64,000 nt of DNA. Source: Candidatus Micrarchaeota archaeon (GTDB lineage: Archaea > Micrarchaeota > Micrarchaeia > Norongarragalinales > SBBD01). The stretch lies in contig JAZDGU010000029.1 of NCBI GenBank assembly GCA_043806595.1, forward strand, positions 2,548-66,547, given 5' to 3'. A program made the translations under genes and the position numbers. The notes below the pieces were generated by a model, which ran no database searches, was not told the DNA's origin, and saw only the letters and a list, made by a program, of their open reading frames with translations. Positions 26,537-31,100 of the stretch are shown here, piece after piece. Positions within the stretch are counted from its first letter, which is position 1. Each line of letters opens with the position of its first letter.

Positions 26537-26575
26537 TTGGCGTCGTTAGGAGTAGTGCTTATAGAGGGAATCTTG

Positions 26576-27787
26576 ATGCCTCAGGCTGCAGTCAACATAG
26601 GAACCATAGGGCACGTCGACCACGGCAAGACCACGCTTGTAGCGGCGCTGACCGGAAAGTGGACGGACACGCACTCCGAGGAACTCAAGCGCGGCATCAC
26701 AATCCAGCTCGGATTCGCGGACGTGACGTTCTACAAGTGCGGCAAGTGCCCCGCGCCGTACAATTATTCGGGCAAACCGAAGTGCCCCGTTTGCGGCGAA
26801 AGCGGCGAAATTGCTAGAAGGGTTTCATTCGTCGACTCGCCGGGCCACGAGACGCTCATGGCGACGGTAATAGCCGCGAGCAGCATCATGGACGGCGCGC
26901 TGTTCGTTATCGCCGCCAACGAGAAATGCCCGAAGCCCCAGACCGTGGAGCACCTCGCCGTGATGGAGTCCGCAGGAATCAAGAACGTCGTGATTGCACA
27001 GACGAAGGTGGACCTGATAGACAAGGACAAGGTCCTCGAGAATTACTCGCAGATCAAGGAATTCCTCAAGGGCAGCGCCTACGAGGACGCGCCCGTATTG
27101 CCGGTTTCCGTCAACTCGCCGAAGGCGGTAAGCGCGCTGATATCGGCGCTAGAGGAGGTCATCCCGACTCCCGAACGCCCGCAATCCGCGGAACTTCGGA
27201 TGCTCGTTGCGCGCAGCTTCGACGTGAACAAGCCGGGCATCGGCATCGACGGCATCGTCGGCGGGGTTGTCGGCGGCTCCATCGTGAGCGGCACGCTAAA
27301 GGTCGGCGACGAGATAGAGATAGCGCCCGGGCTCCTCAAGAAGAAGAAGGACCGCGAGGACTACGAGCGCCTCAAGACGAAAGTGATTTCGCTTCACGCC
27401 GAAAGGGACAGGTTCGAAACCGCCGGCCCCGGCGGTCTCGTCGCAGCCTCGACGACGCTCGACCCCGCGCTGACAAGGGCGAATGCGCTCGTCGGCAACG
27501 TCGTCGGCCTGCCCGGGACGCTTCCGGCCAACCGCACGGAAATCGACGTCGAGATCTCGGCGCTAAAGCGCACCGTGGAGGTGTTCAACGCCTCGCCGGG
27601 CATCAACGAGCCGCTCGTGCTCGGCATAGGGACGAACACTACCGTGGGATTCGTCGTCGAGCGCAAGAAGAAGTCGTATTCGCTCAAACTGAAGAAGCCA
27701 GTAGTCGCGAACGCGGGCGAGAGCCTCGCGGTGATGCGCCGCGCGAACAACCGCTGGCACCTCTACGGCACCGCGAAGATACTCTGA
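26576..27787 (+). CDS. eif2g: translation initiation factor aIF2 gamma subunit
   Basis: G1 GHVDHGKTTL, G2 RGITI, zinc knuckle CGKCPAPYNYSGKPKCPVCG, G4 QTKVD. Start at MPQAAVNIG. Confidence 0.9.
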   Translation: MPQAAVNIGTIGHVDHGKTTLVAALTGKWTDTHSEELKRGITIQLGFADVTFYKCGKCPAPYNYSGKPKCPVCGESGEIARRVSFVDSPGHETLMATVIAASSIMDGALFVIAANEKCPKPQTVEHLAVMESAGIKNVVIAQTKVDLIDKDKVLENYSQIKEFLKGSAYEDAPVLPVSVNSPKAVSALISALEEVIPTPERPQSAELRMLVARSFDVNKPGIGIDGIVGGVVGGSIVSGTLKVGDEIEIAPGLLKKKKDREDYERLKTKVISLHAERDRFETAGPGGLVAASTTLDPALTRANALVGNVVGLPGTLPANRTEIDVEISALKRTVEVFNASPGINEPLVLGIGTNTTVGFVVERKKKSYSLKLKKPVVANAGESLAVMRRANNRWHLYGTAKIL

Positions 27788-27789
27788 CG

Positions 27790-27939
27790 TCAGCCGTCCA
27801 GCATCTTGGCGAGCTGCCGGCTCCAGACCTTGTTCGGCGTTTTCTTCAGCCAATCGACGTAGGAGTCGATGAACTTCAGGCGCTCGATGAAATTCTGCCG
27901 CTTGGCCTCGTCCAACTTTTTGAGGGATGCTCTTTTCAT
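27790..27939 (-). CDS. 49-aa Lys-rich ORF translationally coupled (ATGA) to the upstream NTase gene
   Basis: Own translation: MKRASLKKLDEAKRQNFIERLKFIDSYVDWLKKTPNKVWSRQLAKMLDG. Its start codon overlaps the NTase stop. Ends 2 nt from the convergent aIF2-gamma stop. Confidence 0.35.
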   Translation of the reverse strand: MKRASLKKLDEAKRQNFIERLKFIDSYVDWLKKTPNKVWSRQLAKMLDG

Positions 27940-28547
27940 TTCAAATTCCCCGTAATGAATTCCACGTTTTCTTTTTCGACGCGCAATGCATACATGAATT
28001 CAGAAAGCTTCGCCGTATCTAAGTGCTTTGCGAATAGGCGGTATAAGAACCTTGCGTCCTCCAAATCCTTCTCCGAACCAAGGTACCCCTTGAAAGCAAT
28101 CTGAAGCTCCAAAGGCGATATAAACAGCGGGACGCCGTTAAGAACCAGCTTGACACGGTTTTCCAGCGAATGCGCATCCCACCGGCCCTTGGGGAACTTG
28201 AACTCTACGTTGGGGATGAACTGCCCCTTGAGGGCGAAGCGAATCGCAGTGCCTTTGAGCAGGTAGTCCTCGTAGGCGGCCCTGGCGGAAGGCGCGTTGA
28301 TGCAGTCGAAATCCGCGGAAAGCGACCCCCAAAGCGTTTCGAACTTGGAAAACGGGATTTTCTCGACTATAATGTCAACATCTTCAGTGTTCCTGCTCCT
28401 GCCGAAGGCGATGGCCACGTAGCCCGAAACGAAGACATAGCGGATTTTCGCGTATTCCAAACGGGCTATAAAACGTCGGGCGAAGCGGTCGACGGCGAAC
28501 TCCTCGCGGTCAAGGACGATTTTCTTGCGCGAGAACGTGATTTCCAT
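27936..28547 (-). CDS. minimal Pol-beta-superfamily nucleotidyltransferase (AbiEii/MNT-like toxin-type fold)
   Basis: NTase signature FVSGYVAIAFGRSRNTEDVDIIVE (hG[GS]...DxD) plus a downstream acidic residue in ADFDCI. 203 aa. Confidence 0.55.
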   Translation of the reverse strand: MEITFSRKKIVLDREEFAVDRFARRFIARLEYAKIRYVFVSGYVAIAFGRSRNTEDVDIIVEKIPFSKFETLWGSLSADFDCINAPSARAAYEDYLLKGTAIRFALKGQFIPNVEFKFPKGRWDAHSLENRVKLVLNGVPLFISPLELQIAFKGYLGSEKDLEDARFLYRLFAKHLDTAKLSEFMYALRVEKENVEFITGNLK

Positions 28548-28847
28548 GGCAAGCGTATTGGGCGGAAGGCTTATTTTAACCGTTTGGAACCGGCGTTTCG
28601 CTGGACTTCAAGGTAAGGTAAAAGCGGGCCCGCCGGGATTTCCAAGCTCGCCGTTTCACCCCGCCGGCGTTCCGGCGGTCGAGGCGCGCGGTTTTTTGAA
28701 CCCGGGTCTAAAGCTCCGCAAGCTTTCGTTCTGTCCAGGTTATACTACGGGCCCGCAAATGCGGAATATTTATAAGGCTCAAAGTTAAAAAGCGCTAGTC
28801 CGGATTGACGTCTGAAAACCGAAGACGCTTATTGGGTGCGATTGAAG

Positions 28848-29000
28848 ATGAAGACCTGCACGAGCTGCGGAAGGACCACGGAGGACTACACGATGTTCCC
28901 GTGCCCGGGATGCAGCAAGGCCAAGATAACGCGCTGCAAGGACTGCAAGGAGAACATAAACCGTTTTGCCTGCCCCGACTGCGGCTACGAAGGCCCCTAG
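28848..29000 (+). CDS. 50-aa double Zn-ribbon protein (COG2888/DUF1610-like translation-associated Zn-ribbon), absent from the ORF track
   Basis: Own translation: MKTCTSCGRTTEDYTMFPCPGCSKAKITRCKDCKENINRFACPDCGYEGP, four CxxC pairs. AAGGAG-like RBS of the next gene follows. Confidence 0.55.
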   Translation: MKTCTSCGRTTEDYTMFPCPGCSKAKITRCKDCKENINRFACPDCGYEGP

Positions 29001-29015
29001 AAGGAGATGCGAGGA

Positions 29016-29444
29016 ATGCCCAAGGCAAGAAAGGCGATGGCCTTCGGCGCTTTCGACGTCCTCCACCTCGGGCACATATCCTTCCTCGAGCAAGCCGCCG
29101 CTCTAGCAGAAACCTTGGTGGTCGTAGTCGCCACGGACAAGGTCATCCGCAAGGTCAAGGGCCGCGCGCCCTATTTCAACCAAGAGGAACGGCTCAAGCT
29201 TGTCTCCAGCCTGCGGTGCGTCGGCAAGGCGATCCTCGGCGACGAGGGCAACACCGTCCTCCCAATAGTCTGGGAAAAGCCGGATGTAATCGCGTTAGGC
29301 TACGACCAGCCGAAGAAGATTGGGGAGCTGCGGAAGGAAGTCGCCGAGGTCGGCCTGACCCCGAGAATCGTGCGCCTGAAGCCTTTCGGCGAGCGAAGGC
29401 ACAAGAGCAGCAAGGTCAAGGCCTACTTCGAGAGGTTCGTCTGA
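29016..29444 (+). CDS. ribL: FAD synthase RibL (CTP-dependent FMN adenylyltransferase, cytidylyltransferase fold)
   Basis: AFGAFDVLHLGHISFLEQA...VVVVATD...KGR.P...EER...ILGDE...IALGYDQ matches the MJ1179-type RibL pattern. Alternative start 29007. Confidence 0.8.
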   Translation: MPKARKAMAFGAFDVLHLGHISFLEQAAALAETLVVVVATDKVIRKVKGRAPYFNQEERLKLVSSLRCVGKAILGDEGNTVLPIVWEKPDVIALGYDQPKKIGELRKEVAEVGLTPRIVRLKPFGERRHKSSKVKAYFERFV

Positions 29445-30025
29445 TGAGCTATGCCGCGAGCAGTATTTTTGGGACTGCGATTGCAAGGGCAATGAAGCGC
29501 AATAGTTCCGAGGTCATTCACAACGGGGTGCGGGTTACGAAGAGGGGCAACATAATGCTCGCGCAGTATGCCGAAAGCAGATATCTGGGGATGCCGTATA
29601 TAGTCGCCTACCCCAAACCGGAGGACAAGCGTCTATTCGAAGAAGCGAACTCCGCGATTCACCCCTATGGGCCGGCCGAAGACTTTCCGGGGTCGATAGG
29701 AAGCCTCATGACCGAATGCGAAGAAAAAAGAGACACGGTCGTATTCATCCAGTCGCACTACAAAATCGGGAGGGAGGGGTCGCTGGAGCGCGAGATTCAC
29801 AATAAGTATGCCGGCCCGAGGGGCTGGAGATACTTCGCTGCGCTATCGGCTATCCGCAGGGCCCACTCCAACGACCGGGAAATAGTATTCCCGTTCAGGG
29901 TTCTGACAAGGAATCGCGGCCTCAAGTCCACTCTGGATACCATTTGCGAGGAGCACGGGTATTGGATGAAGAAAGAGGGCGCGAACTTCATAGTAAGGCA
30001 GAGGACGAGATTCGCTATAACATGA
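29444..30025 (+). CDS. hypothetical protein (193 aa), low-GC with atypical codon usage
   Basis: TGATG overlap with the ribL stop. Codons rich in AGA, AAA and ATA, unlike core genes. No recognisable motif. Confidence 0.45.
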   Translation: MSYAASSIFGTAIARAMKRNSSEVIHNGVRVTKRGNIMLAQYAESRYLGMPYIVAYPKPEDKRLFEEANSAIHPYGPAEDFPGSIGSLMTECEEKRDTVVFIQSHYKIGREGSLEREIHNKYAGPRGWRYFAALSAIRRAHSNDREIVFPFRVLTRNRGLKSTLDTICEEHGYWMKKEGANFIVRQRTRFAIT

Positions 30026-31100
30026 AGCCCCTGGCGTCCTCCAGCAAGCCCAGCCCGTCGCCCAGCTGCCTGCCCGCGAGCCTCGCCCCGCCGGTCTCCT
30101 CGTCGGTTGCCTCCACGAAATGCTGGTCGTAGCTGAACTCGCCCGTGCTCTGGAAGAGGAACTTGTGCCGGGCAAGCGGCCGCAGGCGCAAAAGCAGGCT
30201 CTTCTCGCCGTCGAGGAGCTCCCACGTGTTCCCCCGGGGGACATGCTCGAGCGAACATCCGCGGAACGTCCGGTAACGCCTCTTCCTGGCGTCGAAGAAG
30301 ACCGCGTCCGAGGGCGTCAGCGAACCCCATTCCCTGCTCGGCGCGAAGCGCAGGGAGAAGTAGTCGAGGCTGCTGTGGTCCTTGAAGTAGACGTGCACCC
30401 AGTTCCACGGCACGAACGGCCCGACAGCGACCACCTTCTGCACGTAGCACTCGCCGGAGAAGGGCCTGCCGTAGAGCGTGCCGGAAAAGCGGAGGAAGAT
30501 GTTGACGAGCTCGAAGCCGAAGACGCTCGTGGAGTAGTGGCCGAGCTCGAAGGGCTTGCCAGCCGGCCTCGCCTGCAGCCGCAGGTCTAGCACCTGCCTG
30601 CCCTTGTCGTGCAGCGACACGTGGTAGTCGGGGTATCGGCCGAAGAAATACATGCGCGAGGAGTCGCTCAGCACGCCGGTCTCGTGCATGCCCGCGGCGA
30701 ACGGCGAGGAGAACTCGCCCGAGCGCTTGTGCCCGCCGTCGAGGCTCCAGTAGACGCACGCGAGGTCGCACACCTCGGGCTTGCCGTGCTGCGGCCGGAG
30801 CAGGCGGCGGTTTATCCTCACGGAGCCCTCGCCCCTGCCGAAAGTCGCGATGAACTGCCTGCCGCGCGCGACGTCGACAAAGTACAGAAACCAGTATTCC
30901 TTGCCGAAGGCCGGGAGTTCCTCGAAGCCGAAAAACATCCTGTCCGGGCTGGTATGCACGGGCTTTTTCCCGAGCAGGAGCGAGACGCGGTGGAGCTGCT
31001 CGAGCGGCCAGCGGAAGTCGTGGAAGAAGCGCGCCTGCGAGTACGGGATCTTCGGGAGCAAGCGCCTGAGGGAGATAATCGCCTCCGACTGACGGGACAT
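30015..31100 (-). CDS. hypothetical 361-aa protein, possibly lipocalin-like/CrtC-AttH-like fold (speculative)
   Basis: Lower third of a 943-aa ORF whose upper part is antisense to tuf; start set at MSRQSEAI (31100). Trp/Phe/Tyr-rich beta-strand-like segments (WNWVHVYFKDHSSLDYFSLRF). Confidence 0.5.
   Translation of the reverse strand: MSRQSEAIISLRRLLPKIPYSQARFFHDFRWPLEQLHRVSLLLGKKPVHTSPDRMFFGFEELPAFGKEYWFLYFVDVARGRQFIATFGRGEGSVRINRRLLRPQHGKPEVCDLACVYWSLDGGHKRSGEFSSPFAAGMHETGVLSDSSRMYFFGRYPDYHVSLHDKGRQVLDLRLQARPAGKPFELGHYSTSVFGFELVNIFLRFSGTLYGRPFSGECYVQKVVAVGPFVPWNWVHVYFKDHSSLDYFSLRFAPSREWGSLTPSDAVFFDARKRRYRTFRGCSLEHVPRGNTWELLDGEKSLLLRLRPLARHKFLFQSTGEFSYDQHFVEATDEETGGARLAGRQLGDGLGLLEDARGFML

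Follow-up and report, generated by a model that had tools for sequence, protein, structure and literature searches.

In the MenAT1 system of Mycobacterium tuberculosis, the nucleotidyltransferase (NTase) toxin MenT1 (Rv0078A) is paired with the antitoxin MenA1 (Rv0078B; PDB 8AN4, 8AN5), a protein of 68 amino acids (aa) that has no DNA-binding domain and acts via one extended helix (PMC10435456, PMC11375011); by means of this helix MenA1 induces the auto-phosphorylation of MenT1, and AbiEi acts likewise on AbiEii in the AbiE system (PMC10435456, PMC11375011, bioRxiv 10.64898/2026.01.19.700257). This antitoxin-induced auto-phosphorylation takes place two positions ahead of the first aspartate of motif II, at T39 in MenT1, S78 in MenT3 and T65 in AbiEii (PMC10435456, PMC11375011, bioRxiv 10.64898/2026.01.19.700257). 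For the AbiEii/DUF1814 family, Dy et al. described the motifs hG[G/S]-x15-DhD, motif II containing a further arginine (R63, D67 and D69 in AbiEii), a motif III lysine within a hydrophobic helix, and a family motif IV of the form '+DxxD' (PMC3985639); canonical AbiE is enriched in DPANN archaea according to a recent survey (PMC12988326). Here we describe an archaeal gene pair that resembles these systems, located in a stretch of 64,000 nucleotides (nt) from a Candidatus Micrarchaeota archaeon (GenBank assembly GCA_043806595.1, contig JAZDGU010000029.1, positions 2,548 to 66,547 of the forward strand), which as a whole is called the window below. The pair consists of a gene for a compact, 203-aa, MenT/AbiEii-like NTase with a predicted DNA polymerase beta (Pol-beta) fold (27936..28547, minus strand) and a downstream gene for a basic, predicted helical protein of 49 aa (27790..27939, minus strand), which very likely belongs to the Pfam family DUF8150 (PF26477), judged from the open reading frame (ORF) and its homologues.

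We propose that this pair may be a translationally coupled module of the AbiEii/MenT type, in which a MenT-like toxin that modifies tRNA 3' ends is neutralised by a small helical antitoxin; the proposal is made by analogy, and we consider its chances of being right or wrong to be about even. In its proposed working, the archaeal module would be most like MenAT1, with which it shares a compact NTase of approximately 195-203 aa, a conserved catalytic set of [ST]-x-D, lysine and aspartate, overlapping bicistronic genes, and a very small partner without a DNA-binding domain that consists mainly of one long helix (predicted in the archaeal case). Unlike MenAT1, the archaeal proteins belong to an archaeal rather than an actinobacterial family, without detectable sequence homology between either protein and its counterpart; DUF8150 has 49 aa and MenA1 68 aa, and the archaeal partner gene lies downstream, whereas menA1 precedes menT in 15 of 21 cases. 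With AbiE (AbiEi-AbiEii) and with MenAT3 and MenAT4 (DUF1814, PF08843), the archaeal NTase shares the four motifs and the Pol-beta fold with a C-terminal helical lobe; it differs in its size (approximately 200 aa vs. 250-300 aa), in its shorter spacing between motifs I and II, and in falling below the thresholds of the family hidden Markov models (HMMs), and its locus has no AbiEi/COG5340-type winged helix-turn-helix protein, COG4861 or MenA antitoxin upstream, the 49-aa helix being placed downstream instead. The unusual gene order that had been remarked on in an earlier note on this DNA is thus borne out, since placing the NTase first reverses the arrangement of both MenAT1 and AbiE (PMC10435456, PMC3985639); both the enzyme-first order and the DUF8150 partner are new among systems of this type.

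The archaeal NTase and its relation to AbiEii and MenT

An NCBI 'hypothetical protein' from a Candidatus Micrarchaeota metagenome-assembled genome matches the window NTase at 100% identity, and the NTase family is large. A word-indexed search yielded 969 homologue clusters at E<=1e-3, and an exhaustive search 1210 cluster representatives, 162 of them at E<=1e-30 and nearly all 190-210 aa long; when one genome of each GTDB species was scanned, at least 551 loci were detected. The best 80 of these loci, which are the basis of the locus counts given below, come from Micrarchaeota, Woesearchaeota, Nanoarchaeia, Pacearchaeota, Aenigmatarchaeota, Iainarchaeia, Altiarchaeales, Thermoplasmatota, Methanomassiliicoccales, Nitrososphaeria, Methanoperedens and other Methanosarcinales. 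Among them, two pair copies stand on contigs binned as 'Chloroflexi bacterium AB_1215_Bin_59' (L058 and L062), the sole assembly with two copies; as both cluster with Iainarchaeia (L043), they are probably binning contamination.

An alignment of 294 family members was used to count conserved motif residues. Motif I (V40-S41-G42) has the hG[G/S] form of Pol-beta enzymes, with G42 retained in 290 of the 294 sequences. Motif II (R52-N-T54-E-D56-V-D58; 28374..28394, minus strand) presents the two predicted catalytic aspartates (D56 in 285 sequences, D58 in 290), preceded by an arginine at position -4 (R52, 292) and a serine or threonine at position -2 (T54, 292), and an acidic residue follows on a later strand (E115, 288); the Pol-beta signature that had been recognised in S41-G42, D56-V-D58 and a later acidic residue is indeed present. 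Motifs III and IV (K153-G-Y-L-G-S-E-K160-D161-L-E-D164; 28056..28091, minus strand) contribute a lysine in a hydrophobic helix (context I-A-F-K153-G-Y-L) and the '+DxxD' pentad; K153 and D164 are invariant (294/294 each), and K160 and D161 occur in 290 and 293 sequences. For comparison, motif II reads R63/T65/D67/D69 in AbiEii and R76/S78/D80 in MenT3 (PMC3985639, PMC11375011, bioRxiv 10.64898/2026.01.19.700257), and the catalytic set of MenT1 comprises T39, D41, K137 and D152. By motif register and overall structural match, T54 occupies the position that is auto-phosphorylated in MenT1, MenT3 and AbiEii. Judged from the alignment, all four AbiEii/DUF1814 motifs are present in the archaeal family and strongly constrained, the putative phospho-acceptor included. 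As a caveat, Lnu enzymes have a similar E-x-Q...D-x-x-D stretch, with histidine in place of the lysine; motif IV alone should therefore not be over-weighted, as it may not be exclusive to DUF1814.

An AlphaFold model of the NTase, built on 25 sequences, reached a predicted local distance difference test score (pLDDT) of 94.4 and a predicted template modelling score of 0.88, and shows an N-terminal alpha/beta NTase lobe followed by a C-terminal helical lobe, the fold of the solved AbiEii/MenT members. When this model was compared with solved structures by Foldseek, ranks 1-4 were all taken by chains of MenT1 or of the MenAT1 complex. Lower structural scores were obtained for a fungal NTase-like protein (5uvd, 11.8), the aminoglycoside enzyme ANT(2'')-Ia (11.2), TM1012 (11.1) and LnuA (11.0), followed by MenT3 (10.7) and MenT4 (9.0), while CCA-adding enzymes and poly(A)/(U) polymerases scored approximately 6. 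The likeness to AbiEii and to minimal NTases (MNT) that had been suggested earlier can now be divided: structure and motifs speak for AbiEii/MenT, whereas the two-lobed architecture and a partner without HEPN domain speak against MNT. With its 203 aa and two lobes, the enzyme is also not 'minimal', as it had been called, and it is not a fragment of a tRNA nucleotidyltransferase, a housekeeping identity that had been named as a possible refutation.

Searches of profile libraries found little that was already named. Neither protein of the pair in the window has anything above threshold in Pfam, NCBIfam, PADLOC or PHROGs; searched by sequence and by profile against the PDB, the NTase gave nothing significant, save a weak N-terminal match of the profile to 5uvd. 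DUF2204 (PF09970) was matched weakly by 11 of 25 relatives (best E 3.7e-6) and not by the window NTase itself, and a few homologues bear a precomputed PF09970 annotation. Both halves of the pair, the NTase by way of DUF2204 and the partner by way of DUF8150, can thus be found, if marginally, among the listed domains of unknown function; in the literature searched, DUF2204 was met once, in passing, DUF8150/PF26477 never, and a link between the two families was not described. From the structural model and the motifs, we conclude that the NTase represents a compact, divergent branch of AbiEii/MenT-like NTases that is nearest to MenT1 in predicted shape, and that it is not a certified member of Pfam DUF1814.

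The DUF8150 partner, its constancy and its genomic contexts

The partner protein is basic, as had been noted before (13 lysines and arginines in 49 residues), with an isoelectric point (pI) of 10.2 against a family median of 9.5. A profile search collected 1020 homologous proteins; those 82-90% identical to the window partner bear precomputed PF26477, a family that contig annotations name DUF8150, and all of the listed homologues except the weakest carry this domain. Its conserved core reads N-F-x-E-R-L-x-F-I-D-x-Y-x-x-W-L-K-K-T-P-N-K-x-W-S, and the AlphaFold model (pLDDT 82) consists of a helix at residues 2-33, a turn at T-P-N-K, and a second helix at residues 37-48. The conserved positions F23, I24, Y27, W30, L31 and W39 are mainly hydrophobic or aromatic and lie along the helix, and are joined by R20, N36 and S40; near-invariant residues are Y27, W30, N36, W39 and S40. 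In the predicted model, the spacing of the conserved residues would suit a docking helix. The protein is otherwise hydrophilic and charged; it has no hydrophobic membrane segment, no similarity to any toxin family, no HEPN match, no Rx4-6H motif and no conserved histidine.

Two divergent NTases, P0251 (272 aa) and P0274 (276 aa), have a C-terminal extension after the NTase domain. The extension of P0251 was compared with the DUF8150 core by hhalign (E 8e-4, probability 24%) and by hmmsearch (E 5e-4 in a set of 301 sequences), and resembles this core followed by a shared W-N-K-K-x-x-Y-W-F-E-K tail; the extension of P0274 has no significant match to DUF8150. In another protein, P0369 (105 aa, on a contig of 627 nt), a CxxC...CxxC zinc ribbon (precomputed PF28087) precedes DUF8150 within the same ORF; this may be a rare DUF8150 without an NTase before it, or the start may have been mis-called.

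The association of the two genes is constant. Of the 80 loci, 78 could be scored for a small ORF; the others are L042, where the contig ends within the ORF, and L041, where the NTase has a premature stop and the small ORF is intact. Each of the 78 has a small ORF after the NTase, at full length in 76 and truncated in two (L051 and L067); in these scorable loci it encodes 38-76 aa and starts at or just before the NTase stop codon. Among 77 automatically collected small ORFs, 47 show the ATGA overlap, and nearly all others overlap the NTase gene by 7-35 nt. A reciprocal search that started from DUF8150 found a 199-aa NTase upstream, with a 4-nt overlap, in all eight sampled places. Relative to the 80%-identical locus L001, the ratio of nonsynonymous to synonymous substitution rates (dN/dS) amounts to 0.13 in the NTase and 0.12 in the small ORF; in a mirror-tree comparison over 73 loci, the distance matrices of NTase and partner correlate with r = 0.61, where 1000 permutations gave at most 0.15. 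No third recurrent neighbour and no conserved upstream gene accompany the pair in the 80 loci. Both ORFs are real genes that are co-inherited as a constant pair; the small ORF could have been discounted as a partner if it were not conserved at homologous loci, and the opposite was found. A chance ORF is excluded by conservation, dN/dS and structure.

In the window, the NTase stop codon TGA and the partner start codon ATG share the tetranucleotide ATGA (27936..27939, minus strand), and the partner stop is separated by two bases (27788-27789) from the stop codon of the convergent aIF2-gamma gene; ORF lengths, overlap and gap agree with the earlier account in coordinates and sequence. The overlap is taken as the predicted means of translational coupling between NTase and partner. 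A TATA-box-like archaeal element, TTAAAATAAG (28570..28579, minus strand), precedes the NTase; its TATA core, TTAAAATA, lies 25-32 nt upstream of the NTase start codon and recurs at this position in L001, a syntenic relative; this suggests that the pair has its own promoter and would be expressed from a leaderless bicistronic mRNA. A scan for sigma-70 promoters and intrinsic terminators gave nothing useful, as such models are not meaningful for an archaeon.

The pair is placed within a conserved block of translation genes at a site that varies between relatives. In the window, the order is L34e, cytidylate kinase, L14e, Cbf5, aIF2-gamma, the pair, an HVO_2753-like zinc finger, a cytidylyltransferase-like gene, EF1-alpha and S10. 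The metagenomic contig L084 (424 kb; aIF2-gamma 66% identical) has the same block from L34e, cmk, L14e, Cbf5 and aIF2-gamma to the zinc finger, cytidylyltransferase, EF1-alpha and S10, and the pair is absent; aIF2-gamma is there directly followed by a tRNA gene. This empty syntenic site indicates that the pair is an insertion, and it confirms, together with the same insertion in L001 (80% identity), the only locus that shares the position of the pair in the window, what the earlier note had supposed and proposed to check in related genomes. The variable site, from aIF2-gamma to a tRNA-Arg gene, extends over 27788-28624 in the window, 5204-5235 in L084, 2744-5080 in L085, 527-2200 in L099 and 1-4770 in L002. 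L085 and L099 carry approximately 2.5 kb and 1.9 kb of other DNA at this site, the cargo of L085 including two ORFs of 201 and 508 aa without Pfam match, and L002 (77% identity) has HicB-HicA, the pair and an ATP-binding cassette (ABC) transporter beside aIF2-gamma. The pair lies just past the 3' end of the tRNA-Arg gene, which faces it; tRNA 3' ends are a classical location for insertions. When the far side of the inserted pair was searched for attachment-site-like copies of the tRNA 3' end, only short chance repeats came up, and no integrase was found. The tRNA-Arg gene marks the variable site and is not a functional part of the module.

Other lineages place the pair elsewhere; even within Micrarchaeota its genomic locations differ. 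Approximately 10-12 of the 80 loci, including the close relative L002, have HicAB, VapBC/PIN or ParE/RelE modules within two ORFs of the pair. In a neighbour-joining tree of the NTase, Methanoperedens, one group of Thermoplasmatota, Nitrososphaeria, Iainarchaeia and the Micrarchaeota group of the window form coherent groups, and Micrarchaeota, Aenigmatarchaeota and Thermoplasmatota each appear in several places, so that phyla are mixed. The GC content of the pair is 52.6%, compared to 61.8% for the window, and GC content at third codon positions (GC3) stands at 0.69 in the NTase, 0.84 in the small ORF and 0.75-0.91 in the neighbours; since most of the drop comes from codon positions 1 and 2, that is, from amino-acid composition, any transfer was not recent, and composition is weak evidence of recent transfer. 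In L041 (4001-4750), an in-frame stop replaces the codon of the near-invariant Tyr43 of the NTase, and DUF8150 remains complete downstream; either the enzyme gene has decayed and its partner was kept, or the stop is a sequencing error. In one lineage (L102-L105), the pair stands directly upstream, on the same strand and with a 53-nt gap, of a class I lysyl-tRNA synthetase gene, an adjacency that may be coincidental, yet deserves attention, since tRNA is the suspected substrate of the enzyme.

Readings of the pair as toxin module or cellular enzyme

In the proposed toxin-antitoxin mechanism, the NTase would, by analogy, add nucleotides to tRNA 3' ends and so arrest translation, and the DUF8150 partner would be translated by coupling from the same leaderless mRNA. 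The long amphipathic helix of the partner would dock on the active-site face of the NTase and silence it by occluding the active site, by pushing Thr54 to the gamma-phosphate of the nucleoside triphosphate and thereby causing auto-phosphorylation, or by both; in the ancestry of this Micrarchaeota genome, the module was inserted between the tRNA-Arg gene and aIF2-gamma. We favor this mechanism because the fold is MenT1-like and the AbiEii/MenT motifs are near-invariant; because the partner is constant, overlapping and co-inherited, with a predicted long helix that parallels MenA1; because the pair behaves like a module, with no other recurrent neighbour, variable contexts, an empty site in L084 and other cargo in L085 and L099; because phyla are mixed in the tree, NTase GC3 is below that of the neighbours, and toxin-antitoxin modules are adjacent in the minority of loci given above; and because L041 combines a nonsense codon in the NTase with an intact partner. 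The role in toxin-antitoxin action or abortive infection that the earlier note had considered may thus be regarded as a hypothesis with good grounds.

Several observations weigh against this toxin-antitoxin mechanism. The window NTase has no match at E<=10 to the Pfam (PF08843) or PADLOC models of AbiEii, and these models match few of the 25 relatives, and those marginally (Pfam in 3 of 25, best E 0.019; PADLOC in 1 of 25, E 0.008). G42 and D56 are separated by 12-13 residues, as in ordinary Pol-beta enzymes (9-13), and not by the approximately 15 residues of DUF1814. The partner gene follows its enzyme, unlike MenA1; the partner protein found no match among PDB chains by sequence or profile, and its 49-aa model no match to any solved fold by Foldseek, MenA1 (8AN5) being included in both cases. 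The NTase family, with approximately 50% identity between phyla and a mean column identity of 59%, is unusually conserved for a toxin; the pair is mostly single copy, and its contexts outside the window are mostly housekeeping ones, such as the mevalonate pathway, glycine cleavage with fibrillarin, and lysyl-tRNA synthetase. A scan of IMG/VR viral contigs found no relatives, and thus no evidence for a virus-borne module. Finally, P0251 and P0274 are possible natural fusions of enzyme and partner, which would be easier to reconcile with an obligate subunit than with a labile antitoxin.

The high conservation between phyla, the single-copy occurrence in housekeeping neighbourhoods and the candidate fusions also point to the main alternative, which we regard as less likely but serious: the pair could be a domesticated or never-toxic regulated enzyme that modifies 3' ends of RNA, probably tRNA, for the cell. 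DUF8150 would then be a basic subunit on which the enzyme depends, either for bringing in or placing its substrate or for the adjustment of its activity. Such a function is consistent with the purifying selection seen on both genes, their retention in the reduced genomes of DPANN archaea, the clade-coherent subgroups of the tree and the basic character of the partner; a precedent is provided by a fusion of MNT and HEPN in DPANN archaea, which is conserved to an unusual degree in a housekeeping context (Makarova et al., PMC6393860). The patchy presence of the pair, the empty syntenic site and differing locations within Micrarchaeota, the mixing of phyla in the tree, and the classical toxin-antitoxin modules adjacent to it in approximately 10-12 of 80 loci argue against a domesticated enzyme; the fusion evidence is weak, as given by the 24% probability for P0251 and the lack of a significant match for P0274, and every enzyme of this motif set that has been characterised is a toxin (PMC10435456, PMC11375011). 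A bolder variant, which we regard as doubtful, is an archaeal 'translation brake', in which a MenT-like enzyme would reversibly tail tRNA 3' ends, with DUF8150 as obligate regulatory subunit that possibly drives auto-phosphorylation of Thr54, and would serve growth control in DPANN archaea, Thermoplasmatota, Nitrososphaeria and Methanoperedens; it would be a widely retained device and a small-protein switch of a novel type.

The weak Lnu(C) matches among the NTase relatives (NCBIfam; 4 of 25, best E 1.8e-4), and a similar size and two-lobe architecture, raise the question of a small-molecule NTase of the Lnu/ANT kind that would act on an antibiotic-like or metabolite substrate, the small ORF being unrelated or accessory. 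We consider this improbable: the matches are far below the equivalog cut-offs, the window NTase has no match to the curated NCBIfam resistance models, and the motif III lysine, the arginine at -4 and the serine or threonine at -2 follow the AbiEii/MenT pattern; in addition, the pI of the NTase is 9.1, a basic value that would be expected of a protein binding RNA. The group of LnuA, Lnu(C), ANT(2'')-Ia and TM1012 is likewise set apart from the archaeal NTase by structural scores below that of MenT1 and by the lack of a match at the curated threshold. These enzymes act alone on small molecules, without a coupled small partner, and no resistance NTase is known to depend on a constant, translationally coupled one.

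Slightly more improbable still is a reversal of roles, as in MntA-HepT, with the NTase as antitoxin that would nucleotidylylate a toxic small protein, for example on Tyr27, Thr34 or Ser40. The modifier-first gene order matches antitoxin-first operons such as MNT-HEPN, and the near-invariant Y27, W30, N36, W39 and S40 would supply conserved residues in the small protein; this protein, though, has no HEPN motif, membrane segment or toxin-family similarity, and the NTase, with its two lobes, resembles MenT rather than a minimal MNT. The loss of the NTase in L041, with the small ORF kept, is what a harmful NTase would lead one to expect, and counts against reversed roles. As for an MNT-HEPN module proper, such modules are common in archaea and also place a Pol-beta-superfamily NTase first and an overlapping small gene second, but their minimal MNT has 100-130 aa, against 203 aa in two lobes, and serves as antitoxin, whereas the structural affinities here are with toxin NTases; in the lack of a HEPN domain, this assignment is rejected.

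If the toxin-antitoxin mechanism holds, the MenT/AbiEii class of toxins that modify tRNA acceptor ends would gain a large, compact, archaea-specific branch, and with it a new partner type, a 49-residue downstream helical protein; DUF8150, and in part DUF2204, would acquire a function. This branch escapes present detectors of defence and toxin-antitoxin systems, as seen in the blank results of PADLOC and Pfam for the window protein; as the PADLOC AbiEii model is blind to this family, AbiE counts such as those of the DPANN survey cited above would miss it. A system of approximately 200 and 50 residues could also serve as a minimal model for how a tiny peptide switches off an NTase or triggers its auto-phosphorylation, a question shared with MenA1/MenT1. 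In DPANN archaea, whose reduced genomes have few recognised defence systems and in which the module is common, its role in addiction, defence or as a growth brake would matter for growth control; should the translation brake prove true, enzymes known from bacteria as nothing but toxins would turn out to serve a physiological function that benefits their archaeal hosts.

Neighbouring genes and the intron-containing tRNA-Arg gene

The other edge of the insertion site is formed by the convergent aIF2-gamma gene (26537..27787, plus strand), identified by its Pfam domains GTP_EFTU, eIF2_C and GTP_EFTU_D2. The unannotated tRNA-Arg(GCG) gene (28625..28754, minus strand) emerged from an alignment of five loci as a conserved stretch that separates the pair from the zinc-finger gene. 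It is split by a non-canonical intron of approximately 56 nt in the T-loop (approximately 28639-28694). ARAGORN and the Rfam gathering threshold miss the unspliced gene; the Rfam tRNA model scores 26.7 bits on the 5' part, and ARAGORN recognises tRNA-Arg(gcg) once the intron is removed by hand, as it does in the copy of L085, which has no intron. The intron is variable among relatives, with none in L085, 27 nt in L084 and a much longer one in L099. ARAGORN found no tRNA in the 64 kb of the window, which may therefore hold other intron-containing tRNAs.

Beyond the tRNA gene, the plus strand encodes a 54-aa, HVO_2753-like zinc-finger protein with four cysteines (28836-29000; Pfam PF07754, E 1e-11). 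Its gene nearly abuts, on the upstream side, the cytidylyltransferase-like gene (29007-29444), and this pairing is kept in L001, L084, L085 and L099. Between the cytidylyltransferase-like gene and EF1-alpha, two further apparent coding regions were seen, one on the plus strand without a Pfam match (29450-30025) and one on the minus strand (approximately 30015-31100); owing to the high GC content, many long spurious ORFs run across these regions.

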